Shown here in pieces: positions 1,387-25,872 of a stretch of DNA of 32,000 nucleotides (position 1 is the stretch's first letter; the number at the start of each line of letters is the position of its first letter). The notes beneath the pieces are model-generated. The model made no database searches. It was given only the letters and a program-made list of their open reading frames with translations, and was not told the DNA's origin. This stretch comes from Dubosiella newyorkensis. GTDB taxonomy: Bacteria > Bacillota_I > Bacilli_A > Erysipelotrichales > Erysipelotrichaceae. The stretch spans positions 1 through 32,000 of the forward strand of contig NZ_MPKA01000052.1 in assembly GCF_001945605.1 (NCBI RefSeq), written 5' to 3'. The translations under genes were made by a program, and so were the position numbers.

Positions 1387-1387
1387 A

Positions 1388-2125: not shown

Positions 2126-2140
2126 CGTTTTCCTTCCTTT

Positions 2141-3420: not shown

Positions 3421-4433
3421 TGTCCTCCTCGGTCTTGTTCTAAGTCGTTGCCGTTGTTGGTGTACTGGTTTTTGATCGAGCTTCCGTGATGGTCGGTATT
3501 GTTCGAGTCGTTTTTAAACGAGACGGCACTGATTTCATCTCCGATTTGGGCGATCGTTCCCGTTTGGAGTTTTTCTTCGGTTGGAATGTACGAGGCGCCC
3601 GAATAGATTTCTGTGACTTCTACGTACGATCCGACAGGAATGCAATCAAGGATTTCGATCGTGTCGTTTCCGGAAGCGTTCATTACGATCGTTTCTACGT
3701 TTGAGTAGACGAGTTCACTTTTGGTTTCATCGGTGTAGGCGTCGATTTTATAGACGAAGGTGGCGGGTCCGTTGCCGTCGTGTCGTTCGAGTGTTTTGTG
3801 GATGCGGAGTGATCCGTTTCGAAGTTCTTGTTCGACTTTGAGCGTGATGGTCGTATCGTATTTCCAGTCGGTTGGGTTGGCGGTCGAGATTACGTCATCC
3901 ACTTTTTCTTTGGTTGGCAAGGAAAAGAGGATGGGTGTGTATAAATATTCATACTTCCCGGATTGGGAGATGGTGATCGTTTCTCCGCGCATGTTCTTTT
4001 TGGAATACGTTTCTAGATCGCTTCCTCTTGGTACGGCTAGATAGAGTCCGGATTCGATCGTTTCTTTCTCGTTCAGTCGTGTTTGGGTGATTGGTTGGAT
4101 CGATTGTTCGAGAATGAGGTCGAGCGCGTCGGAGGCGATACGAGTGTATTTGGTTTCGTCAAGTGTTTCTAAGTTTTCAAACTCGGAGGCGAGTGGTGAA
4201 AATTCTTCGTTGATCGAGAAGGAGTAGGTGTCATAGTTTGGATCGGGCACGATACTTCCTATCTTGTATAGGTCGATCTGTAAAGATGAGTTTTTGATGT
4301 CTTCATCGCCGGCATGGACAAATTCTACTGAGCATGGCACGCCGGTGTCGATGGCGAGTGTTTTTTGATGAAAACTAAAGCCGGCTATGAGGATGGAAGC
4401 AACGGCTAGGATCCATAGCTTTTTCTTTTTCAT
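3417..4433 (-). CDS. Secreted pilin-like protein with a CnaB-like C-terminal domain and no cell-wall sorting signal
   Basis: The tracked ORF starts at a GTG (4451). The ATG at 4433 (MKKKKLWILAVASILIAGFSF...) lies 8 nt after GGAAAGGA and is the more likely start. It has a signal peptide. The C-terminal block GSLRIHKT...ATFVYKI...VGSYVEVTEIY...AVSFKND has the K/E/N pattern of isopeptide-bonded stalk domains. Only 4 nt separate it from the sortase stop. Confidence 0.5.
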   Translation of the reverse strand: MKKKKLWILAVASILIAGFSFHQKTLAIDTGVPCSVEFVHAGDEDIKNSSLQIDLYKIGSIVPDPNYDTYSFSINEEFSPLASEFENLETLDETKYTRIASDALDLILEQSIQPITQTRLNEKETIESGLYLAVPRGSDLETYSKKNMRGETITISQSGKYEYLYTPILFSLPTKEKVDDVISTANPTDWKYDTTITLKVEQELRNGSLRIHKTLERHDGNGPATFVYKIDAYTDETKSELVYSNVETIVMNASGNDTIEILDCIPVGSYVEVTEIYSGASYIPTEEKLQTGTIAQIGDEISAVSFKNDSNNTDHHGSSIKNQYTNNGNDLEQDRGGQ

Positions 4434-4455
4434 AATCTTTTTCCTTTCCACTTTT

Positions 4456-5277
4456 CTATTTCTTAAAACGATCTTTCAAGAAGATCCATCCAACGAGGAA
4501 GAAGAGGATCGTTCCTGCGATAACGATGGCTACAAGATTTCGGTCGAACAAGGAGGCGTCTTGGCTTCCATCCCCTTCGAGGGCGTTTGGAACCCGATGA
4601 CCTCGCACAAGCAAACGATGGGAATTGATTCCATAGGGTGTACAGGTCACGAGTGTCATTAAATCTTGGCCTGGAACGATTTCAAGGTCGGATGTTTCTT
4701 CCGGAAGCACAGTGCGGATCTGATCGACTTCATAGGTCAATGTTTTTCCTAATACGCGAACCGTAAATGTGTCGCCTTCGACGAGCTTGGTAATGTCGGT
4801 AAACAGGCGGGCACTTGGTAGTCCTCGATGTCCAGATATGACGGCATGGGTGCTTTCTCCTCCAACAGGAAGCGAGCTTCCTTCAATGTGGCCCACATTT
4901 TTTTGGAGCAGGTCTTCATCTGTTCCATGAAAAATAGGCAAATTGATATTCGCTTTTGGGATGTTGACCGATCCCATCAATCCATCGTCGTTCACGTTCA
5001 ATGTTTTTTCATAAAGTTCATGCATTTCTTCGGAAGGAAAGTAGCGATTCTTTTCTTCCAGAAGCAGTTGGTTGTATTTGACGGCGTCGGCATACATCAG
5101 TTCAAGATCTTCTTCTTGAAGCTTAGCGACCGCTTCGTCGTATGTCGCGACAGCACGGGCCGCATACATTTCATTCCACCAATTGGCGATTGTAGGATAC
5201 AACAGCAAGGACAGGCCTACCGTGAAAGCCACAATCAGCAGAATTGTCGTAAAATTCTTTTGTATGTATTTTTTCAT
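4456..5277 (-). CDS. srtC: Class C (pilus-polymerising) sortase
   Basis: It has an N-terminal TM helix, the block GSVNIPKANINLPIFHGT, HAVISGHRG, the catalytic motif TLVTCTPYGINSHRLLVRG, and a second C-terminal TM helix typical of class C sortases. Confidence 0.9.
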   Translation of the reverse strand: MKKYIQKNFTTILLIVAFTVGLSLLLYPTIANWWNEMYAARAVATYDEAVAKLQEEDLELMYADAVKYNQLLLEEKNRYFPSEEMHELYEKTLNVNDDGLMGSVNIPKANINLPIFHGTDEDLLQKNVGHIEGSSLPVGGESTHAVISGHRGLPSARLFTDITKLVEGDTFTVRVLGKTLTYEVDQIRTVLPEETSDLEIVPGQDLMTLVTCTPYGINSHRLLVRGHRVPNALEGDGSQDASLFDRNLVAIVIAGTILFFLVGWIFLKDRFKK

Positions 5278-5374
5278 GTAGGACTCTCCTTACCATTGCG
5301 GCAAGAGAAAGAGCAGTAAAAGCTCTTCTCTCTAACAATGGCTAATCAACTTTAAACAAAATCTTTTTAAGATC

Positions 5375-7036
5375 TTATCCTTCGTTGCTCATTCTTTTTT
5401 TCGTGATCAACAAGATCGCAGAACCTACTAGGAGCACTCCACCGATCACGTAGAGCATTGTGGTTCCCATGCCACCAGTTTCAGGGAGGGTAGTTCCTTT
5501 GGTGTTTAAGATGTTTCCGGTAACAACACCTGTATTTGTATCCCCGGTTCCACTTGTACCATCGACAGTCATAGTTAAATCAGTAACACTACTTCCATCA
5601 TGATCTGCAGTGATTTTTATTTCAAATGGATTTGCTGGAGTATTGTATCCAGTTGGTGCAACAACCTCATATAACTTATAATCACCAGCATCTAAACCAA
5701 TAATGCTAAATGTTCCATCTTTCGCAGACTTAATATTTCCTTCCTTTGGAAGACTCTCTTTTTTTCCATCCCATTTTGTCCACATAGTAATCTTGCCATT
5801 AGTTACTAAGGCATATTCATTATTGTTTCTAGTAATGATAAATTCAGCACCTTCTAATTTTTCGGTTGTTAAAGCTCCATCCACTTTAGTCCCATTTAAT
5901 GTAAAGTTATATACATAAACCGTTTTTTCTGTTGTTTCCCCATCTCCACCAGTATTTGGATTATTAGAATATTCTAGCTTTACTTTATTGTTTTCTTGGA
6001 AAGCAGCACTACTATTTAAAGTCGCTGTATATTCAATAACAATAAAATCACCTGCTGTAATATATCGTTTAGAGGAACCATATGGAGTAGTTTTTAAATC
6101 TGGTAAATTTACTGAAAAGCTTCCTCCGCCATTATCCAATGTTTCATCAGTTAAAGTATAATGGTTACTACCAATCAAATTGGTTTTTACCAACCCTTCC
6201 TCATCGTATGTTAAAACACCGTTAACTTCTTTTGCAGACACGCTATATACTTTTATATCATCATTAAATGATAATCCGTTAGATAAAGTATCTATAAAAT
6301 TAAACTTATATGTATCATAATGAGTCATATCTGGAACTTGAGCAGATAGTCTAAATGTAATGCTATCTCCAATACTATAGTCAGCTGAATTACCAAAACC
6401 TTGACTCTTTCCATTTTCTTTATCCTCGACTTCTTTGGTTACATCAACATCTTCTGTTTTAGGTTTAATCGTAATATCACCTACTACTTGAAGAACTGCT
6501 GGGTTTACAGAACCCGTAGTAGTCTCATCAACGATCAAGTAATATCCATCTTGAACAAGTGCAGAATATTCACCATTTTCGGGTTTCAACACTGTTTTAT
6601 CAACGTTATCAGGAATCTTTTTATCTTCAGCATCATTATCTGCTAATACATCATAGATAACCTTTGCTAACTTAATTCCTTGGTCATCGGTAAAACCATC
6701 AAGTGCTTTAGCAACTTCTTTTGCTTCTGATGTAGTTTTAAGTTTTTTAACAGCATCAACATCTGTGAAGTTATTTTTAAGACTATTAATCAATGTTGTT
6801 TCTGCCTGTGCACTTGTAATTGCGTCACCCCAAGTTACATCAGCTAAAACTTCATCAGGAGTATCTCCTGATTTTGTTCCTTTAAAAATTTGATAAGCAG
6901 TAAATGTACGCCCAGACAAATTAGTTTTTCCTGTTTCAGTTTCGACTGTAACCTTCGCTGCCGAAACAGAAGTCGTTAATGCAAAAGCCATCGCTAATGC
7001 AACAACACTTCCAAACAATTTTTTAATCATTTTCAT
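5375..7036 (-). CDS. LPXTG-anchored major (shaft) pilin
   Basis: It has a signal peptide and an E-box-like YKLYEVVAPTGYN. A candidate pilin-motif lysine sits in GDITIKPKTED. The sorting signal is LPETGG followed by a hydrophobic helix and KKRMSNEG. The gene lies between the adhesin and the class C sortase. Confidence 0.8.
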   Translation of the reverse strand: MKMIKKLFGSVVALAMAFALTTSVSAAKVTVETETGKTNLSGRTFTAYQIFKGTKSGDTPDEVLADVTWGDAITSAQAETTLINSLKNNFTDVDAVKKLKTTSEAKEVAKALDGFTDDQGIKLAKVIYDVLADNDAEDKKIPDNVDKTVLKPENGEYSALVQDGYYLIVDETTTGSVNPAVLQVVGDITIKPKTEDVDVTKEVEDKENGKSQGFGNSADYSIGDSITFRLSAQVPDMTHYDTYKFNFIDTLSNGLSFNDDIKVYSVSAKEVNGVLTYDEEGLVKTNLIGSNHYTLTDETLDNGGGSFSVNLPDLKTTPYGSSKRYITAGDFIVIEYTATLNSSAAFQENNKVKLEYSNNPNTGGDGETTEKTVYVYNFTLNGTKVDGALTTEKLEGAEFIITRNNNEYALVTNGKITMWTKWDGKKESLPKEGNIKSAKDGTFSIIGLDAGDYKLYEVVAPTGYNTPANPFEIKITADHDGSSVTDLTMTVDGTSGTGDTNTGVVTGNILNTKGTTLPETGGMGTTMLYVIGGVLLVGSAILLITKKRMSNEG

Positions 7037-7139
7037 GAATTTATTCCTTTCTTTAATTTCTCAAAAAACATGAGTTTATAACTTTCTTGTTATAATCCCT
7101 TTCATAAAGTTAAATAAATGAACTCTCTATTCTATTCCC

Positions 7140-10100
7140 TTATTTTTTCTTCTTGCTCCACCATCCCTTCTTTCGAAGTATTACCACATAGCCAGAAGTA
7201 GCGATCACGCTAATTCCACTGGCCATGATTGGTGGCTCAATGCCAATACCTCCCGTTTCTGGGAGCGCAAAATACTTGTTATTAAACACCTTTACATAAT
7301 GACTTAAACTCGAACCGCTTTTTATAGTACCAATAATTGTGTATGTACCATTTTCCGGTTTTTTTTCTGGTTCTTTTATGTCACAAGCACTACCTGTACT
7401 CAAACAAGATGAAACAAAAGTTAAGTCTTTCTCGTTTGAATTTATATTTTCAGTGATTTTATAATGAGAATTAATCGGCAAATATTTGATGATAGCATAC
7501 TGATTGTTCTTCAATAAAATTTTTCCTCTACTATGGAATGTAACATTTGAACGTTTCTCATCAATTATGTCATTTCCGTTTGAAGATTTAGTATAAACAG
7601 TCAAAGCATATTCATTTGCTAATTCATTGCCATTCTGATCACTCAACACTATTTCGAATTCATAATCTTTATCTGGATCAGGATCGTTTGACTGCTTTTC
7701 TAAACGAAGTTCTCCAGTTGCATTTTCAGGAGTTTTAGAAACTACATTTGGCAATGTATATTCCATATAACAAGAAGACCCCGCTTGACCACGTTCTAAA
7801 TAATAAACTGTTAAAGTATGCTTACCAGATGATAAATTGTCTCCTAATGCTTGTCGTATATCTACTTCAGCGCCAATTGATTGATGGACACCTCCAATGT
7901 CACAAATCAACTGATCATCTAAGAATACCCACATATCGTCATCTCCATAGAAGAAATAACGTAAAGGTCCTGTATAGTTTTCATCTAAGATAAAATCAAC
8001 TTGGTATTTCATACCAAATAAAGTGTTATGATCTTGATCATCATCACTTTTATAGGTTCCATTAAAACCATAAGTATTACCGTTATACTTTAATTGAGGT
8101 TGATTGTTTGGGGATCCATAATTTTTGGTCGTATCTAAATTATCTAAAGGCCAAAATCCATTATAATGAAATCTGTTTTTTTGTTGTCCTGCAGGGGTGT
8201 AAGCATCCTTTGTTAAAAATTGATTTAACGTGTCTTTATTGTAGTTATTTGGTCCTGAAACACCATAAAGTGAATAGGTGTCTCCGGTCCTATCGAATTT
8301 TAAAGAACCGTCTAATCTAACGGATTTCCCTATTGCTGTTCCTTCATCAAACAATTTAGGTGCATTTACTGCATATTGAAGATGTCCGTCAGAATCTAAA
8401 GCGCTATTTACTAATCCAAATATTGGGTGAGATCGAACAGCTCTGTGCACATCTATTGTTTTTGTATTGTTATTATTATCTTTTACAGTTTGAGTGGTAA
8501 TGAATTCTAAATTTCCTGCCGACTGATTAATACTCTTATCGTTCTTGTTTACATTTACTTGTGGATCATTGCTATAAAATTTTTCAGAAATATATTTATT
8601 TCCTAAAACTAAAGTTGGAGCATTTGTTGATGAATAATTTTTTTCATTATTAATCCCCACCCTACCATTATTATGGGTATAAATATTCAGATTAGTATCA
8701 TAAAAATCATAATCCCAAAAAGACGTCTTTTCTGTAGCTTTGGATTCGGTTTCATTAAATACCAACCGAATTTCTGTTCCTTCTGTTATCAGATAATATT
8801 TCCCTTCAAAATCATTAGGTTGTAGAGGATCATATAAATCTTTGTGTTGATCTGAATTTGTAAACCGAATATTTTTAGCTAAATCATTTGAATTGTAATT
8901 AAATTTAGACCAATTCGATTGTTCATTTGGTTTTATCCATATTTCTTTTAAACAATACGATTCTACACCATCCAATTTATTAAAATAATCTAAGCTAGGA
9001 GCTTGATGAAATTTATACTTAGTCGACGAATAAATTTCTTCTGGTTCCTTACCTAATTTTTTATTAAATTTTCCCTGAACATTTTTATAATCTTTATATT
9101 TAACAAATCCAGGGGCAAATTTCTCAGGAATTTTTGTCATATCTATAACTTGGAAAGTTGCATTTTGTCTTGCTGTTTTACCTTGATTCAAATCTTCATA
9201 AGTAGCTTCTTGGTTTTTATGGAGATATCCATAAATTTCTACTTCAAACTCAGGGTTAGGCGTTATTTGAATATTAAGAACCATAGGATCCGATGCATTT
9301 TGACTAAAAACTATAGGGGTATTAGTATAATTTTTGTTAATTAAAATACTATCATTAGCCGTTTCCGCATCAATCAAATCTGTTTCTACCGTTTTGTTGA
9401 TGTTCATTATAGAAACGCTAGCTCCTACTTCCGCCTCTGGCTTGACATCCTCCAGATCCTTCGTAGTATCATACTTCTCCACAAAAGCTTGAGTAGGTGT
9501 TAGCTCCGCATCAAACTTCTGATCCTCCAAATTGATCTCTTGGTCTTCCACAAAGAATCTAAGCTTGTAGAATGACAAATCAAGCAACTGTTCAGGATCC
9601 GTATCCTTTTCGCTTTGTTCTTTTAGCTTTTGGATTTCGAGTTGATCTTCTTCATTTTGTGTTGTTTCATCGATCTTCTCGATTTGAAGTGTAGGAATTG
9701 GTTTATTTTCCTCTTCCTCTTGTTCTTGTTTCGCTTCTTCTTGGATCTGTTCCAATTCATCTTCGGAACGATTGATTTCTTCATCGATCTTGTCTTGGAT
9801 GTTTTCTTCTGGTTCTAAGCTGAACTTTTTGATTTGGAGTTCGTTGTCTGTCGTTTTTTCTGTTTCTTCTTGTTCTTTGTTTTCTTCTTCTAGTTGTTTA
9901 TTTTCTTCTTTTTGTTCTTCTTCTTGCTCGCCAGGAATCGATCTAGGCTTTAGAGTGAGCGTGAAGTCTTCTGTTTCTACTTTGAACTCTTCTGGAAGGC
10001 GATATTCGATCTCTTCTTTTGTTTCTTCGTTTTTGTCTTCTTTTTCTTCTTCTGCTGGTTCTTCTTTTCCATCTTCTACTACTGGATCTTGTTCTGTCGG

Positions 10101-11120
10101 TTGTTTTTCATCCTCTACTTCTTGAACTTCTTGTTCTGGATGCACATAGGCCATCGTTTCATACTCTTTTTCTTGAAGAACGATTTCCTTTACTTGATCA
10201 TTCAAATCGCCCACGATGGCTTTATTCTTGTCTTGATTCACAAGAAAACCAACATAACTCTTAATTTCTTTGTCAGGAACATTTTCATCCTTTTGATCTT
10301 TGAAGAAGATCAAATCTCCATTTTGTGGTTCATATCCTTCTGGTTCAAACAACTCTTTCTTCGAAAGATCTTCGATCCATTCGTTCCAGTCGTGTCCATA
10401 TGGAATTTGTTCATTCTTGATTCCCGCATAATGAAGGACGAATGAAGCGAACATGATATTCCAGTCTTCGTATGGCTTTCCATACCATTCTCCATACCGC
10501 GTGTAATAGTGTTCTTTCCCATCAGAATCGAGTTCGAAGTTTTCTTTTACTTCCTTATAGTCTTTTTGACTCTTCGCAATCTGGACGATCTTTTCATCCA
10601 GCTTGTCGCTCAACGTTTCCGGAATCGAGTTTTCCCAATCTTCCTTCTTTTCTTTCAATTCTTTATTGGAAGTACATTCTTTCGAATGGGTGTGTTCTTC
10701 TTTTCCGCAAACAGGATCGACACTCAAATAACATTTTGGAGAATGTTCATGTCCTTCTACGCTTTCGCTCTCTTCTTTATCGCAAATCAATACTTGTTCT
10801 TGCTGGAAACACGACTCGTCATGAACATGCTCTTCACTTTCTTCCAAAGGACAAATGAGCGTTTGTTTGATTTCATAACACGAATCGTCGTGAACATGAC
10901 CTTCGATCGATTCTCCTTCTACTTTTCCGCAAAGCGGATCTTTAGAATGATAACAATCTTCTGTGTGCGTATGCTCTTCCTTATCGCAATAGAATTGCTG
11001 GGCTTCCGTTTCCAAAGTCAATGCCGGAAGGATCAGCGCATACGTTGTACAAAAGACGATCAAACAACTTAGCGCGTTCGTCACCCGTCTCCAAGAACGT
11101 TTTTTTCTCTTTCTATCCAT
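7140..11120 (-). CDS. 1326-aa LPXTG surface adhesin, probably the pilus tip protein
   Basis: In order it has a signal peptide, Cys/His knuckle repeats, a CHAP-like domain lacking the catalytic Cys and His, a roughly 190-aa Glu/Lys/Gln-rich linker, a large N/Y/K-rich body, a fibro-slime/PA14-like domain and a CnaB-like domain. The sorting signal is LPETGG plus a TM helix and RKKGWWSKKKK. Confidence 0.8.
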   Translation of the reverse strand: MDRKRKKRSWRRVTNALSCLIVFCTTYALILPALTLETEAQQFYCDKEEHTHTEDCYHSKDPLCGKVEGESIEGHVHDDSCYEIKQTLICPLEESEEHVHDESCFQQEQVLICDKEESESVEGHEHSPKCYLSVDPVCGKEEHTHSKECTSNKELKEKKEDWENSIPETLSDKLDEKIVQIAKSQKDYKEVKENFELDSDGKEHYYTRYGEWYGKPYEDWNIMFASFVLHYAGIKNEQIPYGHDWNEWIEDLSKKELFEPEGYEPQNGDLIFFKDQKDENVPDKEIKSYVGFLVNQDKNKAIVGDLNDQVKEIVLQEKEYETMAYVHPEQEVQEVEDEKQPTEQDPVVEDGKEEPAEEEKEDKNEETKEEIEYRLPEEFKVETEDFTLTLKPRSIPGEQEEEQKEENKQLEEENKEQEETEKTTDNELQIKKFSLEPEENIQDKIDEEINRSEDELEQIQEEAKQEQEEEENKPIPTLQIEKIDETTQNEEDQLEIQKLKEQSEKDTDPEQLLDLSFYKLRFFVEDQEINLEDQKFDAELTPTQAFVEKYDTTKDLEDVKPEAEVGASVSIMNINKTVETDLIDAETANDSILINKNYTNTPIVFSQNASDPMVLNIQITPNPEFEVEIYGYLHKNQEATYEDLNQGKTARQNATFQVIDMTKIPEKFAPGFVKYKDYKNVQGKFNKKLGKEPEEIYSSTKYKFHQAPSLDYFNKLDGVESYCLKEIWIKPNEQSNWSKFNYNSNDLAKNIRFTNSDQHKDLYDPLQPNDFEGKYYLITEGTEIRLVFNETESKATEKTSFWDYDFYDTNLNIYTHNNGRVGINNEKNYSSTNAPTLVLGNKYISEKFYSNDPQVNVNKNDKSINQSAGNLEFITTQTVKDNNNNTKTIDVHRAVRSHPIFGLVNSALDSDGHLQYAVNAPKLFDEGTAIGKSVRLDGSLKFDRTGDTYSLYGVSGPNNYNKDTLNQFLTKDAYTPAGQQKNRFHYNGFWPLDNLDTTKNYGSPNNQPQLKYNGNTYGFNGTYKSDDDQDHNTLFGMKYQVDFILDENYTGPLRYFFYGDDDMWVFLDDQLICDIGGVHQSIGAEVDIRQALGDNLSSGKHTLTVYYLERGQAGSSCYMEYTLPNVVSKTPENATGELRLEKQSNDPDPDKDYEFEIVLSDQNGNELANEYALTVYTKSSNGNDIIDEKRSNVTFHSRGKILLKNNQYAIIKYLPINSHYKITENINSNEKDLTFVSSCLSTGSACDIKEPEKKPENGTYTIIGTIKSGSSLSHYVKVFNNKYFALPETGGIGIEPPIMASGISVIATSGYVVILRKKGWWSKKKK
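7754..8159 (-). other. Fibro-slime / PA14-like carbohydrate-binding-type domain within the adhesin
   Basis: GFWPLD...HNTLFGMKYQVDFILDENYTGPLRYFFYGDDDMWVFLDDQLICDIGGVHQ matches the hallmark of the fibro-slime domain (TIGR02148-type): FxPLD...HNxxFT...FxFxGDDDxWVFINxxLxxDLGGxH. Confidence 0.65.
10640..11003 (-). other. Five tandem Cys...H-x-H-x3-C knuckle motifs at the adhesin N-terminus
   Basis: The copies are CDKEEHTHTEDCY, CGKVEGESIEGHVHDDSCY, CPLEESEEHVHDESCF, CDKEESESVEGHEHSPKCY and CGKEEHTHSKEC, read directly from the translation (aa 45-149). Confidence 0.75.
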
Positions 11121-11135
11121 AATTCCTTCGCCTTT

Positions 11136-11732
11136 CTAAATTCCGCTCAGCTTATTCAAAGGCCAGACTCGACCTACAAGCTTTCCTACGATCATTTCTT
11201 CTGCCACAGGACCGATTGCCTTTACACGAGAATCCATCGAAACGCTTCGATGATCTCCCATCACGAACCACCGATCTTCAGGCACTTGATACGGATATTC
11301 AATATCCGTCTGTCCGATCGACCTTTCACTCACATAGGGCTCTTCGATCTCTTCCCCATTCACATACACAACTCCATCATCATCGATGAACACCCAGTCG
11401 CCAGGACCCGCGATCACTCGCTTGACAAGAATCTTGTTGTTGTAGTAAAAGGCGATGATATCCCCCGTCTTATAATTGTTTCCTTTTACAGAAAGAACGA
11501 CATCGCCCGCCTTGAGCGTAGGTGACATACTATTTCCATAAATCTGTAAAACAGGGAGCCATAACGTAGCCACTAAAACCGCGATCGCAGCCACCACCAA
11601 TAAAGTCCCCACCGTACTTTTCAATGTCCTCACATACTGACTTTTGTGCCGAACTCGATTTCGTTCTTGAACGAGCTCATCCAGCGAGTACGAGACATCG
11701 ATCTTGTTTTCTTTGCTTGCTTTCTTTCTCAT
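11136..11732 (-). CDS. Type I signal peptidase (S26A, bacterial P-type), associated with the pilus locus
   Basis: It has a TM helix and then YGNSMSPTLKAGDVV (catalytic Ser box), ILVKRVIAGPGD (Lys box) and GDHRSVSMDSR (the GDNRxxSxDSR box). An RBS AGGGGA lies 5 nt before the ATG at 11732. Confidence 0.85.
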   Translation of the reverse strand: MRKKASKENKIDVSYSLDELVQERNRVRHKSQYVRTLKSTVGTLLVVAAIAVLVATLWLPVLQIYGNSMSPTLKAGDVVLSVKGNNYKTGDIIAFYYNNKILVKRVIAGPGDWVFIDDDGVVYVNGEEIEEPYVSERSIGQTDIEYPYQVPEDRWFVMGDHRSVSMDSRVKAIGPVAEEMIVGKLVGRVWPLNKLSGI

Positions 11733-12660
11733 TCATTCCCCTATATATAAATAGACCGTCACTTTCTTCATTTGAGAACTTCACTTCAAAATCATCAATA
11801 TTCGAACCCGAAACCACGATCTTGAACGGATGCTTTTCTTTATATTCCAGATCTTTGCGCGACCATTTGTCATACGCATCCACAAACGAATCATGCAGTA
11901 AATGTTCAGCCTGCTTCCGCACAAAGATCGCATCCTCCTTCTTTTCAAACGCCCCCAAAAAATACCGGACCTTCTGAAAAGAAATTTGAGCGATCCATTT
12001 ACCCTTCTGCTTTCTTACGCCCGTACAGCCACTCGTGTTGTCTTTACGAACTTCTTTGGAACGAAGTGACTCCACACACGTTTGCTCGACATAGTGAAGT
12101 GTTTCTTTTGGATCGTGTTCATGAACCAAACAACCACAACTTTTCACATTCCCAGACTTTAGCTGATTCAACGAAACCTCAATACGATTGCCGCAATCAC
12201 AAACACACTCCCAAACAACACTTCCCGCCAGTCGTTTTTCTGTCGGACAAATCGCCAGCAAACGACCAAACTTTTGATTCGAAATATCTTCAGACTTCTT
12301 CCCTTTCGAACAACCGCAACTCGACGTTGGATTGTTCCTTGTCAAATGCGAAGTAGGAACTTTGATTTCATTTCCACAATCACATCGGCATAGCCACAAA
12401 TAATTCGAACCCTTTTTTTCATTCAATTTACGAATGACCGTAAGCTTTCCGATCTTCTTTCCCGTCAAATCGATCGAAGAAGTTCTCGAACAACCGCAAC
12501 TATGAACAAGCTCACGCTCGATCTTGTAGCGCTCCAAAAGAATTTCATTTCCACAATCGCAACGACAAAGCCACAAAAAGCTGCCCTTTCTTTTTTGCTC
12601 GGTCTTTTTGAGCACAGTCAGCTTTCCAAAACGTTTACCACTCAAATCAACCGCTTTCAT
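11677..12660 (-). CDS. DNA-binding protein with three Cys-rich (zinc-ribbon-like) repeats and a C-terminal AP2-like domain; candidate locus regulator
   Basis: There are three repeats of about 55 aa: F/IG+LTV...W.C.CDCGN.I......L......SCGC (aa 5-57, 64-118, 125-177; nt 12130-12648). NTSGCTGVRKQKGKWIAQISFQKVRYFLGAFEKKEDAIFVRKQAE then matches the bacterial/phage AP2 pattern (nt about 11896-12048). An RBS GAAAGGG lies 6 nt before the ATG. Confidence 0.6.
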   Translation of the reverse strand: MKAVDLSGKRFGKLTVLKKTEQKRKGSFLWLCRCDCGNEILLERYKIERELVHSCGCSRTSSIDLTGKKIGKLTVIRKLNEKKGSNYLWLCRCDCGNEIKVPTSHLTRNNPTSSCGCSKGKKSEDISNQKFGRLLAICPTEKRLAGSVVWECVCDCGNRIEVSLNQLKSGNVKSCGCLVHEHDPKETLHYVEQTCVESLRSKEVRKDNTSGCTGVRKQKGKWIAQISFQKVRYFLGAFEKKEDAIFVRKQAEHLLHDSFVDAYDKWSRKDLEYKEKHPFKIVVSGSNIDDFEVKFSNEESDGLFIYRGMNEKESKQRKQDRCLVLAG

Positions 12661-18340: not shown

Positions 18341-21300
18341 TTAAGCCTCCTCTTCTACTGTTTCTGTTGCATCTATTTCTTCATCGACAGGATCGTCTTG
18401 AATGATCTGACCGTCGACTATATCTTCTTCTTCAATATGATCTTCTTTCGGCTCGATATCATTTTCAAGTCGCTCGTTTGCTGGCGCCTCGAACACCTCG
18501 TGCTCATGGCTGATATGCTCATCCTCTTCATTGGTGATGTCGACCTCGTTGCCATTCTCATCAAGAAGACGCACATCGATCGCAAGCCCTTGAAGCTCAT
18601 GCATCAACACGCGGAACGATTCAGGAATCCCTGGCTCAGGAATATCCTTTCCTTTAATGATCGCTTCATACGTTTTGATACGACCCTGGATATCATCCGA
18701 CTTGATCGTCAAGATCTCCTGCAAAGTATGGCTGGCGCCATAAGCTTCCAAAGCCCAGACCTCCATCTCACCAAATCTTTGACCACCATTTTGCGCTTTA
18801 CCACCAAGAGGCTGTTGGGTAACAAGCGAATATGGTCCCGTCGCGCGCGCGTGCAGCTTATCGTCAACCATGTGCGCCAGCTTGATCATATACATGACAC
18901 CAACGCTGATCCGCTCATCGAAAGGAAGACCCGTCTGACCATCACGAAGCACTTGTTTACCATCCTTCGTCATTTTCGCTTCTTCCATGATCGCGGCCAG
19001 CTCTTCATTGGAGACACCATCGAATACTGGAGTCGCGAACTTTTGATCAAGCTTCTTCGCCGCATAACCAAGATGGATCTCTAAGATTTGTCCGATATTC
19101 ATACGCGAAGGCACGCCAAATGGATTCAAGATGATATCGATCGCCGTTCCATCCTGCATGAATGGCATATCTTCCACAGGAAGGATCTTCGAAATGACAC
19201 CTTTATTTCCGTGACGACCAGACATCTTGTCACCCTCGGAAATCTTACGCTTTTGAACGATATACACTTTGATCCGCTCATTGACTCCAGGAGGAAGGTC
19301 AGCCCCTTCTCCGCGTTTGAATTTACGGATCGAATGCACGATTCCAGCACCACCATGCGGAACCTTCAAAGAATTATCGCGGACTTCACGCGACTTCTCG
19401 CCAAAGATCGCCAACAAGAGCTTTTCTTCTGGAGAAACTTCCGATTGTCCTTTTGGCGTTACTTTACCTACGAGAATATCGCCTTCTTTTACTTCCGCGC
19501 CGACCATGATGATACCATCTTTGTCCAACTTGCGAACCGCGTTTTCTCCAACGTTAGGAATGTCGCGCGTGATCTCTTCTGGACCAAGCTTCGTATCCCG
19601 GCAGTCGATATCATATTCTTCGATATGAATCGAAGTATATACATCATCCGAAACCATGCGCTCTGACATGATGATGGCATCCTCATAGTTATATCCATAC
19701 CAAGTCATGTAAGCGATCGTCACGTTTTGACCAAGCGCGAGCTCGCCATTTTCCATACTTGGACCATCCGCCAAAATGTCTCCCACTTTGACTTCTTCGC
19801 CCAGTTTAACGATCGGTTTTTGGTTGATCGATGTCGAAGCGTTGCTTCGAGCGAACTTACGAAGCTGATATGTATGCGCTTCGCCTTCCTTATCTGTCAC
19901 GACGATCCGCAACGAATCCACATACGAGATTACCCCGTCTTGCTTCGAAACGATACCAACACCAGAATCTTTCGCGATCTTATATTCGATTCCCGTTCCA
20001 ACATATGGAGAATGTGGCGTCAACAAAGGTACCGCTTGACGCTGCATGTTGGCACCCATCAAGGCACGAGAAGCATCATCGTTTTCAAGGAAAGGGACAC
20101 ACGCCGTGGCCACAGAGACGATCTGCTTTGGAGAGACGTCCGCCAATTCGACATCTTCGCGATTCGCGATGATCGTATCGCCATTTTTACGGGCGACCAC
20201 GCGTTCATTGATCAAACGTCCATCCCGGACCTCGTTGGCCTGGGCGATGACATAATCCGCCTCTTCATCCGCAGAAAGATAGATCGCCTTTTCCTGAACC
20301 GTGCCATCTTTGTTTACGATCCGATATGGCGTTTGGATAAAGCCATACTCATTGATCTTGGCATAAGTCGTCAAGTTGGAGATCAGCCCGATGTTCGGTC
20401 CTTCTGGCGTCTCGATCGGACAAATACGGCCATAGTGCGAAGAGTGAACGTCACGCACCTCGAATCCGGCACGTTCCCTAGAAAGTCCACCAGGCCCCAA
20501 TGCCGAAATACGACGCTTATTGGTCAACTCGGCCAATGGGTTTTGCTGGTCCATGAATTGAGAAAGCTGCGAAGAAGAGAAGAACTCTTTGATCGCCGCT
20601 GTCAACGGTCGAATGTTCGTCAATTTTCTTGGCGTTAGATTATCGAGTTCTTGGATCGACATTCTTTCTTTGACGACCCGCTCCATCCGGCTAAGACCGA
20701 TCCTAAACTGGTTTTGGATCAATTCGCCCACCGAACGGATCCGACGATTGCCAAGCATATCGATATCGTCTGTTTCGCCAATTCCATCCATGACATTCAA
20801 GTCATAGCCAAAGAATGCATAAATATCGGCGATCGTAACAGTATGCCGGTTAGCGAATGGATCATTGCCGACGATCTTGACGATCTGCTCATCTTTATCG
20901 ACGACCTTGACTTCTTGACAAGCCGCGCCAATGAGCCAAACATTCACTTCTTGTTCGCCAAGCTTTTGGTGAAGAGCGAGCTGGTTCGCGTCGTCGATGC
21001 GATCTGGACTTACCCCCACTTGATAGCGAGGAACGATCAATTCCATTTCATGATCGATCACATCTTGTCCATCCGCGTTCGTGATCCGACCCATCGCGAA
21101 CAAACGCTGTCCATAGTTCATCACCGCATTGAAGTTTTCTTCGTTGAGCGTAACTGGCTTAGCGACGATACCCGCATAGATCTTGACTTTTTCCACATGC
21201 TCTTTGAGCTTGTCGACATCTTGCTGGGTCAAGACAGTGCCTTCTTCGAACAATGTTCCGAACACATCGACATCTTTGGCAAGGACACGACCTACAAGAC

Positions 21301-22525
21301 CTGCATTATAGCTTGTCGGGATCGTCACGATATCCTTTTCATGGAACTCGGAACGGAAAGGATAAGGAACCATATATCCTCCTTTCGAGAGGATCTCCTT
21401 CAATTGGTTTCTCTCGTCCCGATGGATATGAAGGCCTTGCTCCATCACCACATTGCCATCAATATCCACGATATCCGTAGCCAACGTGTTGTTCATCATT
21501 CGAGCATACGCGTTGAGTTTTTTCTGCAGCTTATAACGTCCAGCCTTCGTGAGATCATAACGGCGATGATCGAAAAACTTCGCTTGCATCAAAGTGATCG
21601 AACCATCAAGCGTTGGGATCTCGTCGCTTCTTTGGTTTTCATAAAAAGAAAGAAGCGCTTCTTCTGTCGTTTTGACTTTATCGTTCAACAACGTGTTTTC
21701 AATTTCTTCGTATTTTCCAAAGAACGCGTTATACAACATCAAATACAAGTTCATGTATTCTCTGTTTTCCTCGTCTTCCGGCACATCTTGAAGCTGCCGG
21801 CCTAAAGCGTGAAGGAATGTTTCAAGATCTTTCGTATCGAAAGCATCCTCGTTCTTTTCCAAGCCAAAAGACATTCCTAAAGCTTTGAAGAAGATCGAGA
21901 AAAGGATCTTACGGCGGCGGTCGATCGAAACATTGATCGTTCTTCCGCTCATCGTTTTCTTTTGTTCAGTCATGAACTCAAGCCAAGTACCACGGCTTGG
22001 GATCAATTCACAGTTATAGTTCTGCTTTCCTGTTTTTTCGTCATACGCTTCCGAAAAGTAAGCTCCAGGAGAACGAACGATCTGAGAAACGATAACACGC
22101 TCCGCACCATTGATGATAAAAGTACCGGTGTCTGTCATCAAAGGGAAGTCGCCTAAGTAAACTTCTTCGCTTTTTGTACGCACTTCTCCGGTATCCGGAT
22201 CCGTGATCTCTAATTCCATTTCCGCATAGAGCGGAGCTGCATAGTTGCATTCTCTATACATTGATTCTTCGGCATTGTATTTCGGCTCGTCGAAATAAAA
22301 ACGCACGAAGTTTAATTTAATATTCTTACCGTAGTTTTCAATAGGATATATTTCTTCAAATACTTCCTGGATTCCATGTTTTGTGAACCATTCGAACGAA
22401 TCTGTCTGGATCTCGACAAGATTCGGTAATTCGAGGTTTCCACTTACTTTTGAGTAGTCTCGCCTGGAGGATTTGTTTCCGCAAGAAACTGTGCGATACG
22501 CTTTGTTGCTGTCCATGAACGCCAT
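18341..22525 (-). CDS. rpoB: DNA-directed RNA polymerase beta subunit
   Basis: Conserved blocks include [15 protein letters not shown], the rifampicin-cluster region [34 protein letters not shown], and [13 protein letters not shown]. The ATG at 22516 (MDSNK...) has better spacing to GAAAGGA than the first ATG at 22525. Confidence 0.98.
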
Positions 22526-22583: not shown

Positions 22584-22612
22584 ATATTATCAATGAGATT
22601 CAAGTCTGTCAA
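22584..22612 (-). promoter_or_regulatory. Sigma-70-type promoter upstream of rpoB
   Basis: On the minus strand, TTGACA (22607-22612) is followed by a 17-nt spacer and TAATAT (22584-22589), about 60 nt upstream of the rpoB start. Confidence 0.6.
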
Positions 22613-22658: not shown

Positions 22659-22805
22659 TTAAAATGGATTCGCGATCGCGAGCATCAACATCAAGAACGA
22701 AAGACATAAAAACAGCACAGTAAGCTTCGTGTTTTTCATCGTGATGAAGTATAAGCTGACGATCGAAAATAAAATACATAATATAAAGAACAATAGAATT
22801 ACCAT
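22659..22805 (-). CDS. Possible 48-aa hydrophobic small protein (below the ORF-track size cutoff)
   Basis: My own translation is MVILLFFILCILFSIVSLYFITMKNTKLTVLFLCLSFLMLMLAIANPF, two predicted TM helices. The ATG is 7 nt after the stop of the GTPase-NYN gene. There is no convincing Shine-Dalgarno sequence. Confidence 0.25.
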   Translation of the reverse strand: MVILLFFILCILFSIVSLYFITMKNTKLTVLFLCLSFLMLMLAIANPF

Positions 22806-22812
22806 AATGATC

Positions 22813-25290
22813 TTATTTAAGATGAGAGAGCGCGATCGCGTTGACTCCCATCACTTTCCCTTCTAATTCTCTTGCGGAGATCCGATTGGCGCCACTTGCC
22901 AAGATCGAATTCTGGATCAGCCCATCCGAAGTCGCCACACTGATCGAATAATGACTCTTTAGATCATGGACTAGACGTTCAATATAAGAATCCGCATTTT
23001 CTCCATATCTCGTATAGATGATCTTCGTTTTATGACGCGTTTCGTTGCGTCCCTCCCCTTGTTTGCGACGATACGCATCAAAGACAAGATAGACATCGAT
23101 ATCCTTATATCCTTGATAATTGACGATTTGGTCGATCAAACGCTCCCTAGCGGCGTTATAATCCGCTTTAGCAAGATCTTTCAGCGAATTCCAGCTATAG
23201 ATCATATTATAGCCATCGATCACGAGAAGCTCTGGCTTTTTAGGCTGGATCTTGATTTCTTCATGATCCAGTTCTTGCTTGACTTTTGGTTTTTTCGCCT
23301 TTGGTTTCTCTTTCTTTTTTGAAAGCGTTCTTTCAAATGCGCGCTTCGCTTCCTCATCCGATACGTGATAACGCACTCTTTCATAAGAATGGCTCGACTC
23401 TGTATCGAGAGGATGAAGATGCATTTTTTCTTCGACCTCGTCGTAAGGAACATAATACCCGGCCCCTTGTTTGCAGAAAATCGAGCCAGTCGGATGCTTG
23501 AGATCCGCCTCAGGATCGTATTGGATCGTTTTCACGATCGATTCTGTATCTTGGCTTGGCGCATAAACGCTCTTGATGAACGCGATCTTTCCTCTTCCTT
23601 TGCTCAGGGCGGAAAGCTCCGATTGAAAGTTCATCAACAAACGAATGGCGCCGCTCCCTTGGATCGTGCTCATATCTTCTTCTGTCTCTAAGATCTCGAA
23701 GCTCGCATTTCTTTGTTCCAATTCATAGAGCACCTTAGAAAGGCTTTGAGATGGAACCTCGATCTTAAATGTGTAATAAGGTTCTAATAAGATCGATTTC
23801 CCTTTGCGCAAAGCTTGACGCACGGCGCGATGGGCGGCTTGACGAAAGTCGGCAGCCGACGTATGTTTCAAATTCCCTTGTCCTGCGATCAATGTGATCT
23901 GCACGTCCGTTAATTCCGATCCCGTCAACACCCCATATTGTCTTTGGTTCAAAGCGTTCATGATTTGTTGTTGCCAGCCTAAAGACAACGATTCGATGCG
24001 GTTTCCATTGCAGACAACGACGCCTGATCCTGCTGGCAAAGGATCAAGGAGAACATGCACTTCCGCATAATGACGGAGAGGTTCAAAATGTCCCACTCCA
24101 TATTCTTGTTTCCCGATCGTCTCTTTATAAACGACGCTTCCTTGCGAAAAACCGATCAAGATGCCTGTTTTTTCTAAGATCATCTTTTGCAGGACCTCTT
24201 TTTGAACATCGCCCCGCAATCGGAGGGTGATCTTTTTGCTCCTTTCATGATAGTCAAGCTGCAAGCTCGGATCTTCTTTTGCTAATTGCTGGCAATAAGG
24301 CCAGAGCTGCAAAGCATCGACTTCTTCAGGTAATAGCAGCTCATACGTCAAAAAGGAGGCCAGCAGACGTTCTTGTTGGGCTGTTTCATAACCGAGGCCA
24401 TCTCCGACTTTCCAATCGGTATCGGCTTTGAGGGCGACAATATCTCCCGCATTCGCTTCTTGTAGAAGCGTATACTTTTGTCCATTGAAGCTGCGGATCT
24501 GATCGATCTTGATTTCATTGACGATCTCTTTGGCTTTCAGCGTTCCGCCCGTGATCTTGGCTAGAGCGCTTCCATCTTCTTGGATCTTGAAAATACGGGC
24601 TCCAAATTCTTGGGAAAATTCTTTTTGCCCAACGAGGGCGCAAAGAGAGTCGAGCAGCGGATCGACGCCTTCATTTTTCAGGGCGCTCCCAAAAAAGGTC
24701 GGAAAAAAGCGTCGAGTCAAAAAGAGTCTTTGAATCGTTTCCGAGGACAAAGAGCCTTGTTGGAGGTATTCTTCGAGCGCTTTGTCCTCGCACATCGCGA
24801 TCATTTCTTCCCGATCCTTGTCGGCTTGATCGATACTGTTGGGATCGAGCTTGCTTACGACTTCCTCTAAGATCTCTTCTTTGTTTCGATAAGCGATATC
24901 CATCTTATTGACGAAGATCAATGTGGGGATCTCATATTCTTTCAAGCATTTCCAGATCGTTTCCGTATGCGATTGGATACCGTCCTGGGCGCTGATCAAA
25001 ACGATGGCGACATCAAGCACGCTAAGGACTTGTTCCATTGAGGCTGAAAAATCGACATGTCCTGGTGTATCGATCACGAAGATTTCATGATCTTTCCACT
25101 TGAATTTGGCTTGTTTCGCAAAGATCGTGATCCCTCTTTCCCTTTCTTGTGGATCATAGTCGAGGAAAGCGTCTTGATGGTCGACTCTTCCTTGTTTTTT
25201 GATTTGATGGCTTTCGTAGAGCATGCTTTCGATCAGTGTCGTTTTGCCTGCATCGACATGGGCCAATATTCCTAGTGTAATCTTTTCCAT
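22813..25290 (-). CDS. TetM/EF-G-like translational GTPase fused to a C-terminal Rae1/YacP-type NYN ribonuclease domain
   Basis: G1 is AHVDAGKTT, G3 is DTPGH and G4 is NKMD. The sequence is colinear with ribosomal-protection-type GTPases through domains IV-V (SAADFR...LLEPYYTFKIEVP). A Lys-rich linker KKKEKPKAKKPKVKQ follows, then the NYN domain, all in one uninterrupted frame. Confidence 0.85.
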   Translation of the reverse strand: MEKITLGILAHVDAGKTTLIESMLYESHQIKKQGRVDHQDAFLDYDPQERERGITIFAKQAKFKWKDHEIFVIDTPGHVDFSASMEQVLSVLDVAIVLISAQDGIQSHTETIWKCLKEYEIPTLIFVNKMDIAYRNKEEILEEVVSKLDPNSIDQADKDREEMIAMCEDKALEEYLQQGSLSSETIQRLFLTRRFFPTFFGSALKNEGVDPLLDSLCALVGQKEFSQEFGARIFKIQEDGSALAKITGGTLKAKEIVNEIKIDQIRSFNGQKYTLLQEANAGDIVALKADTDWKVGDGLGYETAQQERLLASFLTYELLLPEEVDALQLWPYCQQLAKEDPSLQLDYHERSKKITLRLRGDVQKEVLQKMILEKTGILIGFSQGSVVYKETIGKQEYGVGHFEPLRHYAEVHVLLDPLPAGSGVVVCNGNRIESLSLGWQQQIMNALNQRQYGVLTGSELTDVQITLIAGQGNLKHTSAADFRQAAHRAVRQALRKGKSILLEPYYTFKIEVPSQSLSKVLYELEQRNASFEILETEEDMSTIQGSGAIRLLMNFQSELSALSKGRGKIAFIKSVYAPSQDTESIVKTIQYDPEADLKHPTGSIFCKQGAGYYVPYDEVEEKMHLHPLDTESSHSYERVRYHVSDEEAKRAFERTLSKKKEKPKAKKPKVKQELDHEEIKIQPKKPELLVIDGYNMIYSWNSLKDLAKADYNAARERLIDQIVNYQGYKDIDVYLVFDAYRRKQGEGRNETRHKTKIIYTRYGENADSYIERLVHDLKSHYSISVATSDGLIQNSILASGANRISARELEGKVMGVNAIALSHLK
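22816..23229 (-). other. NYN (YacP/Rae1-like) nuclease domain, the last 138 aa of the fusion
   Basis: LLVIDGYNMIYSW...YLVFDAYRRK...IIYTRYGENADSYIERL...ISVATSDGLIQ...RISARELEGKV parallels B. subtilis YacP (LLVDGYNMIGAW...VVFDAH...VIFTKENETADERIEKL...VATSD...SARELL). The acidic residues of the PIN-like site are retained. Confidence 0.8.
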
Positions 25291-25310: not shown

Positions 25311-25342
25311 ATAAAAAAACAGAAGCGGAGAATCACGCTTCT
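25311..25342 (-). terminator. Rho-independent terminator after the 25333-25872 gene
   Basis: The minus strand reads AGAAGCG-tgattctc-CGCTTCT followed by GTTTTTTTA. The stem includes the TGA stop. It lies only about 20 nt upstream of the RBS of the GTPase-NYN gene. Confidence 0.6.
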
Positions 25343-25872
25343 GGATAATGTTCAATTAACGCGATGGCGGTATCCAGCATTTTTTCAGGTACGTCGTTTT
25401 CTTCTAAGAGTTCATAACACATACTCATAAGATTGCGATACTTAGGATCTTGGGAAACTTTCACTAGATCCGGATTGGATACGAGAGAACGAAGCTTCTC
25501 GCGTTTTTGAAAATAAGAGGCTTCCGCTTCAATGTGGGAAATGAGTTCCTGCAAAGTCCATTCCAGATTGGTAGGCGTTGTTACAGCTTTGTGACGCACA
25601 AAGATGCCTTCTTCTTTTAAAGCGTTGTCGATCTTGGTGATCGTGTCGACTTTTTCATCGTAGAAATACATGAAAATTTGCGAATTTCCTTCTAAATCGA
25701 GCGCGTGTTCTTCTTTTTGAACGAGATCTTTGAGCTTTTTGCTCAAATCGTTTTGTCCTAGTTCAATATAGTTGACATGCATCCGATCAAGAACGGTGTT
25801 GATCTTTTCTTTTAACGCTGTATCTTTTCCATAATATATAAGTACCATTTGCTCGGTTCCTTTCTTTGACAT
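25333..25872 (-). CDS. Hypothetical cytoplasmic protein, possibly DUF3783-like at the N-terminus
   Basis: It is 179 aa with no signal peptide. An RBS AAGGAA lies 9 nt upstream. The N-terminal VLIYYGKDTALKEKINTVLDRMHVNYIEL resembles the DUF3783 pattern, but that recollection is weak. Confidence 0.5.
   Translation of the reverse strand: MSKKGTEQMVLIYYGKDTALKEKINTVLDRMHVNYIELGQNDLSKKLKDLVQKEEHALDLEGNSQIFMYFYDEKVDTITKIDNALKEEGIFVRHKAVTTPTNLEWTLQELISHIEAEASYFQKREKLRSLVSNPDLVKVSQDPKYRNLMSMCYELLEENDVPEKMLDTAIALIEHYPEA

Follow-up and report, generated by a model that had tools for sequence, protein, structure and literature searches.

Proteins in which a translational GTPase (trGTPase) of the Tet/TetM-like kind is joined to an NYN_YacP nuclease domain were reported from Clostridia, without experiments, by Atkinson 2015 (PMC4342817) and Matelska 2017 (PMC5499597). 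The first report proposed testing the fusion for the ability to act as an RNase on ribosomal RNA (rRNA), and the second noted 'TetM-NYN_YacP fusion proteins' and left their role open; neither tested the function nor split the GTPase from the true Tet proteins. In the literature searched no experimental study of the fusion was found, nor any mention of it in recent work on the nuclease Rae1. Here we describe a fusion of this kind from Dubosiella newyorkensis, a member of the family Erysipelotrichaceae. It is encoded in the first 32,000 nucleotides of contig NZ_MPKA01000052.1 (assembly GCF_001945605.1), a stretch referred to as the window. We consider it somewhat probable that the gene product is a Rae1 endoribonuclease that docks on ribosomes in a GTP-gated manner; most likely the fusion brings the nuclease to stalled ribosomes rather than providing tetracycline resistance. 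The architecture as such, for which an earlier note on this DNA had left room for novelty, was already published in 2015 and 2017. New in the present account are the placing of the GTPase in a distinct subfamily with unfused orthologs, the conserved length and motif of the tether, and the tail-less short form.

B. subtilis Rae1 (YacP) is the only characterised member of PF05991. Its cleavage of mRNA is translation-dependent and feeds transfer-messenger RNA (tmRNA). Rae1 was first modelled in the ribosomal A site, but the same laboratory has since withdrawn A-site cleavage, and papers from 2025-2026 now place the cut at the tail of ribosomes that have stalled or collided. According to a 2026 preprint, collision-induced tmRNA tagging needs Rae1, and no structure of ribosome-bound Rae1 exists, binding being transient. 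The nuclease domain of the window has the NYN fold and the four active-site aspartates, including D7 and D81, in common with Rae1. It differs in that Rae1 is a free protein of ~170 aa which binds ribosomes transiently by itself and has a tail of ~45 aa, whereas the window domain is tethered to a GTPase and lacks the tail. SmrB of E. coli and Cue2/NONU-1 of eukaryotes are functional analogues only: they are nucleases acting at stalled or collided ribosomes, and their cut makes rescue substrates, but they have the unrelated SMR fold and are recruited via the disome interface or ubiquitin and not by a fused GTPase.

The published Clostridia fusions share with the Dubosiella protein the domain order, the domain IV signature GHFEPLRHYAEV, the KHT tip, the PTGSxFC block, the EE..F..T motif of the tether and the DGYN/FDAY/TAD/TSD motifs of the nuclease, and fall into one clade with it. 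These long forms (~860-960 aa) carry a G' insertion, have longer tethers and keep the whole of Rae1, tail included, unlike the shorter form (~825-870 aa) of Dubosiella and other Erysipelotrichaceae, which has lost the tail. Among the fusions in Additional file 8 (PMC4342817) are those of R. albus, E. eligens, E. rectale, B. proteoclasticus, C. cellulolyticum, C. lentocellum, L. phytofermentans, C. thermocellum and D. hafniense. Nine complete sequences given there carry GHFEPLRHYAEV, the KHT..DFR tip and the C-terminal block (C-block), the three signatures by which the family is operationally defined here. Genomes with the fusion also encode elongation factor G (EF-G) and EFGII (genome table of Atkinson 2015, PMC4342817), and the fusion is therefore an accessory factor.

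The fusion gene and its modules

The gene is a single open reading frame (ORF) of 825 aa, uninterrupted from ATG to stop and with zero internal stops in the ORF list of the window (Table 1). The ATG start is backed by the aligned N-termini of relatives. The protein is identical to the NCBI entry 'NYN domain-containing protein [Dubosiella newyorkensis]', and among the matches listed at least 120 full-length homologs from independent assemblies, with 47-62% identity, have the same architecture. All 120 listed homologs and the long forms contain GTP_EFTU, EFG_IV, EFG_C and then NYN_YacP in one polypeptide. D. muris has the same fusion in the same synteny. Because of the identical NCBI protein, the independent homologs and the D. 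muris synteny, an assembly artefact is excluded and the fusion is a real gene.

The earlier note had read this ORF as a ribosome-dependent GTPase joined in frame to a Rae1/YacP nuclease whose catalytic residues are intact, and the single ORF, the Pfam domains and the four retained aspartates agree with that prediction. Its quoted motifs were all located: AHVDAGKTT (residues 10-18), DTPGH (74-78), NKMD (128-131), SAADFR (478-483) and LLEPYYTFKIEVP (501-513) in the GTPase, a Lys-rich linker at ~657-688, and VIDGYNMI (690-697), VFDAY (736-740), ENADSYIE (764-771), VATSDG (785-790) and SARELEGKV (805-813) in the nuclease. The anticipated Pfam domains likewise occur in one polypeptide, with GTP_EFTU (PF00009) at residues 4-218 (E 1.9e-54), EFG_IV (PF03764) at 385-497 (E 5.8e-12), EFG_C (PF00679) at 501-581 (E 7.9e-14) and NYN_YacP (PF05991) at 689-814 (140.5 bits, gathering score 24.6, E 6.7e-41); the matches to EF-G_D2 and EFG_III are weak.

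For the body, TetO and TetM are the nearest solved sequences (E 1e-63 to 1e-60), and EF-G comes next. An AlphaFold2 (AF2) model built from 106 homologs has a mean predicted local distance difference test score (pLDDT) of 82.5 and a predicted template modelling score (pTM) of 0.55. In Foldseek its body matches the fold of EF-G2 and, over ~680 columns, those of EF-G and TetM. Both modules are well folded in the model, with no confident contact between them. The C-block following domain V is covered by no Pfam model in the Pfam scan and is predicted as helix, beta-hairpin and helix with pLDDT ~84-90. Fused and unfused orthologs have it; TetM, Otr-like and EF-G-like proteins lack it. By sequence and fold, the N-terminal 625 residues form a complete five-domain trGTPase with intact motifs for GTP binding and hydrolysis.

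Conservation was followed in alignments of 30 relatives, of 106 relatives (47-62% identity) and in a third one to which eight long-form sequences had been added. Invariant or nearly so in the GTPase are G1 (H11-T18), T55, D74-x-PGH78, N128-K129-x-D131 and G201, the domain IV loop at residues 398-411 (consensus GxGHFEPLRHYAEV) and the tip K475-H476-T477...D481-F-R. In the C-block none of the three alignments shows variation at Y591, D596, S603, F605 and G609, and P600, C606 and H624 vary little or not at all. At the domain IV tip D. newyorkensis has N473 (nt 23872-23874), where most family members carry a His, as EF-G does at this position.

The tether between the modules has pLDDT <50 at residues 630-643 and 655-681, and part of its motif forms a short helix of low confidence in the model. 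Its length, measured between H624 and the NYN domain, is 59-74 residues in close relatives (n=106, median 63) and 64-198 residues in Clostridia loci (n=32, median 76). The minimum across both sets is 59 residues, and the last 45 residues are on average net-basic. At residue 659 (nt 23314-23316) the window protein has K, where N659 is 99% conserved in the tether motif.

By homology, the C-terminal 139 residues form an NYN nuclease of the Rae1/YacP kind that retains the four catalytic aspartates. They align to residues 2-128 of 181 of B. subtilis YacP/Rae1 (5MQ8/5MQ9, E 1e-21), with D692, D738, D767 and D789 corresponding to Rae1 D7, D53, D81 and D104. All four are invariant in the 106 relatives, and the published catalytic mutant of Rae1 is D7N D81N. 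Invariant or nearly so are D692-G-Y-N695, R715, D738, T760, D767, D789, Q793 and R803. As the invariance of their motifs shows, both GTPase and nuclease are under purifying selection across Erysipelotrichaceae and many Clostridia. The form in Dubosiella and other Erysipelotrichaceae covers positions 1-128 of the 166 of PF05991 and ends ~11 residues later, so that the C-terminal tail of Rae1 is lost. The long forms of Lachnospiraceae and other Clostridia hold a near-complete Rae1 with tail (positions 1-165 of 166 in P0130), and standalone Rae1 proteins keep the tail as well. The loss in the short form suggests that the GTPase took over recruitment, on which the nuclease would then depend. Nearest among standalone Rae1 proteins are those of Eubacteriaceae, in a cluster look-up among the matches listed. 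One 170-aa cluster (P0515) is annotated with HTH_3 (PF01381) and NYN_YacP; an association of some YacP genes with helix-turn-helix (HTH) proteins has been described (Matelska 2017, PMC5499597).

Table 1. Position of the fusion gene, its predicted parts and other features in the window
Feature	Residues	Position (nt)	Strand	Basis
Whole fusion gene (825 codons + stop)		22813..25290	-	ORF list; identical NCBI protein; at least 120 full-length homologs
G domain: G1 AHVDAGKTT, G2 T55, G3 DTPGH78, G4 NKMD, G5 GSALK	4-218	24637..25281	-	PF00009
Domains II and III	~228-380	24151..24609	-	Weak EF-G_D2/EFG_III Pfam matches; AF2 beta-barrel then alpha/beta domain; Foldseek
Domain IV	385-497	23800..24138	-	PF03764
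Domain IV signature GHFEPLRHYAEV	399-410	within domain IV	-	Alignment invariance
Domain IV tip K475-H476-T477...D481-F-R483	475-483	23842-23868	-	Alignment invariance
Domain V	501-581	23548..23790	-	PF00679
Family-specific C-terminal block, YDPEADxxxPTGSxFCxxGxGxxVPxxEVxxxMH	582-625	23416..23547	-	Alignments; AF2
Tether, disordered, net-basic	626-686	23233..23415	-	AF2 pLDDT <50; length survey
Tether motif (V/I)S(E/D)(E/D)E(L/M)xx(I/V)F...GGxNxNEKK; here VSDEEAKRAFERTLSKKKEKPK	~643-664	23299-23364	-	Motif conservation, both classes
Predicted Rae1/YacP-type NYN endoribonuclease domain, catalytic D692, D738, D767, D789	687-825	22816..23232	-	PF05991; 5MQ8 alignment
Terminator-like hairpin and T-run, end of upstream DUF3783 gene, ~30 nt before fusion start		25320..25343	-	Hairpin scan; context only
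Promoter-like site for rpoB, TTGACA-17-TAATAT with TG, downstream of fusion gene		22584..22612	-	Consensus match only
Sortase		4456-5277	-	Pilus-like cluster
Gram-positive pilin backbone protein with SpaA domain		5375-7036	-	Pilus-like cluster
1326-aa protein with DUF7601		7140-11120	-	Pilus-like cluster
Signal peptidase S26		11136-11732	-	Pilus-like cluster

Relation of the GTPase to TetM, EF-G and unfused orthologs

The highest-scoring NCBIfam model for the window protein is tet_protect (NF012153), which gives 380 bits against a cutoff of 775 bits. Unfused relatives reach 355-436 bits, and a genuine TetM included in the same scan as control reaches 870 bits with tet_protect and 1510 bits with the Tet(M) model. 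The protein also lies far below the EF-G models (224 bits against 659 for TIGR00484, 272 against 583 for NF009381). It has the fold in common with EF-G and EF-G2 (Foldseek E 1e-47 to 1e-41). The expectation that automated pipelines would call such genes tetracycline resistance was borne out in relatives: P0032 and P0082 are annotated as 'TetM/TetW/TetO/TetS family tetracycline resistance ribosomal protection protein', although the window protein, with 380 against 775 bits, lies far below the cutoff of the curated model.

With TetM and TetO (3J9Y, 4V6V) the body has the five-domain EF-G-like build and all G motifs in common, and the identity to 3J9Y is 26% (Foldseek). It differs from them in the domain IV loops, the C-terminal helix, the clade, the score with the model of ribosomal protection proteins and the core-genome distribution of the fusion. 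The domain IV loop reads GHFEPLRHYAEV in the family and IHIEVPPNPFWASIG in TetM; the tip reads AHxKHTEGGDFR in the family consensus, YYSPVSTPADFR in TetM and SYHDVDSSETAFK in EF-G. These motifs cleanly divide the family, fused and unfused, from TetM. Loop III of TetM, which displaces the drug and is described as functionally most important, tolerates some substitutions if the conformation is kept. Where this loop has LYYSPVS (L505-YYSPVS), the window protein has QGNLKHT, and K-H-T does not vary in the family, in agreement with the reading of LKHTS for the YSPVS loop in the earlier note. The short C-terminal helix of TetM (the C-terminal extension, CTE) is replaced by the YDPEAD..PTGSxFC..MH block, and the two do not align.

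A sample of genomes was scored with a profile of the family body, and the groups separate as follows among the matches listed. Fusions, with C-block present and NYN fused, score 750-1070 bits and were found in Blautia, Acetatifactor, Merdimonas, Sellimonas, Pseudobutyrivibrio, Oscillospiraceae, Acutalibacteraceae, Ruminococcus, Lawsonibacter, Mogibacterium and Clostridiaceae. Unfused orthologs (L032-L036, L042-L046), which have the signature motifs and the C-block in common with the fusion but no NYN domain, score 690-880 bits and come from Collinsella, Coriobacteriaceae, Bifidobacterium, Neobacillus, Cohnella and Intestinibacter. TetM, Otr-like and EF-G-like proteins score 165-455 bits (TetM 380-390) and have neither C-block nor NYN. 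The unfused orthologs terminate 2-23 residues past the C-block, and no NYN gene, which could be a standalone Rae1 neighbour, lies within 6 kb of them in 10 loci. Neither curated models naming these orthologs nor a published functional study of them was found.

In a neighbour-joining (NJ) tree of 89 sequences over 590 columns, the family forms a single clade with a bootstrap of 100/100. The mean distance between family and TetM is 1.64, compared with 0.84 within the family; TetM is as far from the family as any other trGTPase. The fusions of Erysipelotrichaceae are monophyletic (100/100). Unfused groups interleave with fused ones and the internal branch order is unsupported; one fusion followed by loss, or several independent fusions, may both be compatible with the tree. 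On these sequence criteria the GTPase is a distinct trGTPase subfamily and not TetM in the strict sense, and the label 'TetM class' given to it earlier is imprecise in view of its own clade, its score and its unfused orthologs. As the clade is distinct and has unfused orthologs, a pre-existing ribosome factor was joined to Rae1, following Rosetta-stone logic.

Another group of Tet-like GTPases, with the tip HHVWHTHPLDF, no C-block and ~450 bits on the family profile, was seen in Cohnella (L050) and Paenibacillus jilunlii (L052); Cohnella holds both a protein of this group and an unfused C-block ortholog (L043). Full-length fusions of the Clostridia type also occur on contigs in two Bacteroidota bins, Alloprevotella sp. 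(L017) and Barnesiella intestinihominis (L055). Most likely these reflect binning contamination; horizontal transfer is less likely.

Genomic context and other features of the window

The fusion gene is placed between a DUF3783 gene and rpoB-rpoC. The distance of 287 nt to rpoB, on which the earlier note had remarked, was verified from the ORF list, but a meaning of this adjacency did not hold up. The synteny is confined to Dubosiella and absent in three other genera, with unrelated housekeeping neighbours in Faecalicoccus and two other Erysipelotrichaceae loci, and the adjacency is therefore regarded as incidental; a conserved operon partner or rpoBC linkage was rejected. At the loci of Clostridia and of unfused GTPases the neighbours are also unrelated housekeeping genes. 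The promoter-like site in the 287-nt gap suggests that rpoBC is transcribed from a promoter of its own. No mobile or defence genes were seen near the fusion at the loci examined, PADLOC gave no match, and no Rfam elements were found in the window.

The gene for the DUF3783 protein (25333-25872, minus strand) immediately precedes the fusion, in the same arrangement as in D. muris (L001 9361-9879). Its stop codon overlaps the terminator-like hairpin only ~30 nt ahead of the fusion start, and the promoter scan found no promoter-like site between the DUF3783 gene and the fusion start. Seven nt past the fusion stop and upstream of the rpoB promoter-like site lies a 48-codon ORF for a very hydrophobic peptide (MVILLFFILCILFSIVSLYFITMKNTKLTVLFLCLSFLMLMLAIANPF, 22659-22805, minus strand). 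It was rejected as a real gene and is probably due to chance, since it has no counterpart in D. muris. In three unrelated lineages an RNA-type methyltransferase gene adjoins that of the GTPase, be it fused or unfused, which could be chance: MTS/PrmA-like (L003 12489-13097), Methyltransf_4, TrmB-like (L034 4203-5162) and PF04445 SAM_MT (L036 4060-4824).

The rpoB gene of the window (18341-22525, minus strand) is unusually long with 1394 aa, including an acidic C-terminal extension of ~60 residues; RpoB of D. muris has 1401-1404 aa (L001 12775-16989), and RpoB of B. subtilis ~1190 aa. The region 412-12660 (minus strand) looks like a sortase-dependent pilus/adhesin gene cluster in which several further ORFs have no Pfam match. 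Its GC content is 0.30-0.39 over 5-10 kb, compared with ~0.45-0.50 in rpoBC, and may point to a horizontal origin.

Proposed function and its alternatives

A role in translation surveillance, one of those considered for this protein at the outset, is judged the most reasonable reading of a GTPase combined with an apparently intact Rae1. In the GTP form the body would bind the factor site of the 70S ribosome as EF-G and TetM do, and domain IV would lie in the A site of the 30S subunit. Docking would need a stalled or collided ribosome with its A site free or stuck in the pre-translocation state. As domain IV would fill the A site, by homology to EF-G and TetM, the nuclease could not occupy it simultaneously, and the premise of an A-site nuclease, on which the earlier note had built, is outdated also for Rae1 itself. 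The tethered nuclease would instead act on mRNA away from the decoding centre, and the stretch at the mRNA entrance of the bound ribosome is the most plausible target. For a disome this means the gap that follows the leading ribosome, which is where the cut by B. subtilis Rae1 is now placed. Hydrolysis of GTP would then free the factor, and the cut mRNA would yield non-stop ribosomes for rescue by tmRNA (trans-translation).

The conserved minimum length and motif of the tether and the invariance of G1-G5, H78, the tip, the C-block and the four NYN aspartates speak for this mechanism. So do the domain architecture and folds, the distinct clade with its unfused orthologs, the tail kept in long forms but lost in the short one, the presence of EF-G and EFGII besides the fusion, and chromosomal housekeeping neighbourhoods that differ from genus to genus. 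Several points weigh against it. Ribosome binding, GTPase activity, RNase activity and substrate are all deduced from homology; the GTPase may have a job other than stall sensing; and the choice of the bound ribosome within the disome is purely inferential. That 59 or more tether residues would suffice to bridge the distance is judged from general ribosome geometry.

It is rather improbable that the GTPase is itself a stall-resolving or recycling factor, as the unfused orthologs would be, and that the fusion serves merely for co-expression or co-localisation with Rae1, with no gating by GTP. The unfused orthologs, which end shortly after the C-block and have no NYN gene nearby, would fit such an arrangement, as would the disordered tether and the AF2 model without confident contact between the modules (pTM 0.55). 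The fusion has, however, been kept across two classes of Firmicutes together with a conserved minimum tether length and tether motif, and the missing Rae1 tail of the short form suggests dependence on the GTPase.

Just as improbable, in our estimate, is a ribosome-targeted RNase acting on rRNA or tRNA, be it in rRNA maturation or quality control, ribosome inactivation or turnover under stress, or toxin-like shutoff. In this reading the GTPase would bring the nuclease close to 16S/23S elements at the site of factor binding. A nuclease bound to a module that, by EF-G/TetM homology, contacts the sarcin-ricin loop, h44 and the decoding centre would be well placed for this. Early genomic-context work tied YacP to the rRNA/tRNA processing genes mrnC and yacO (PMC5499597), and RNA methyltransferase neighbours were seen at 3 of ~12 loci examined. 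The only characterised PF05991 member, in contrast, cuts mRNA, no conserved immunity or antitoxin partner adjoins the gene, and the long tether argues for a target distant from the factor site. Phage-triggered shutoff, another of the roles first considered, found no backing, and a reading as phage-defence system or toxin was rejected, given the lack of a PADLOC match, of an adjacent immunity-like gene and of a defence or mobile neighbourhood.

A tetracycline ribosomal protection protein, possibly assisted by its RNase, as suggested in Atkinson 2015 and asked in Matelska 2017, is very unlikely. TetO and TetM are the nearest solved sequences, tet_protect is the best-scoring model, some relatives bear the TetM/W/O/S family annotation, and loop III of TetM has some tolerance for substitution. 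These similarities are outweighed by the score far under the cutoff that real TetM exceeds, by the separate clade and its distance to TetM, and by the exchange of loop III and of the C-terminal helix region for other conserved sequence. Resistance genes usually have a patchy distribution. The fusions of Erysipelotrichaceae stand in varied core-genome contexts without mobile elements in four genera, and their monophyly fits vertical descent in that family.

A sequencing or assembly frameshift joining two neighbouring genes has next to no probability: a relative in Ruminococcus sp. CAG:254 is indeed divided into two ORFs, but hundreds of independent assemblies and isolates show the unbroken architecture with its conserved linker. 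In that relative (L080 5977-8603) the ORFs overlap, the GTPase stops at about profile position 480 and the second ORF holds C-block and NYN; its frameshift marks a pseudogene or an assembly error.

Beyond the proposal of a ribosome-docking Rae1, we tentatively raise the possibility, itself doubtful, that the C-block trGTPases are an unrecognised ribosome-rescue family. Its members, joined to Rae1 in Clostridia and Erysipelotrichia and standing alone in some Actinobacteria and Bacilli, would sense stalled or collided ribosomes via a specialised domain IV tip. If so, the fusion would show that cleavage of the Rae1 type ordinarily needs a translational GTPase to license it and takes place outside the A site. 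A GTPase locked on the ribosome, by guanylyl imidodiphosphate (GDPNP) or the exchange H78A, would then give the first structural view of Rae1 on ribosomes.

A Rae1 tied to a trappable ribosomal GTPase would be a handle for cryo-electron microscopy and biochemistry, and the fusion would be independent evidence for a nuclease acting outside the A site. The free GTPases of Bifidobacterium, Collinsella and some Bacilli may be unrecognised rescue factors. As abundant gut Firmicutes (Lachnospiraceae, Oscillospiraceae and Erysipelotrichaceae) carry the gene, labelling it as tetracycline resistance would inflate resistome counts.

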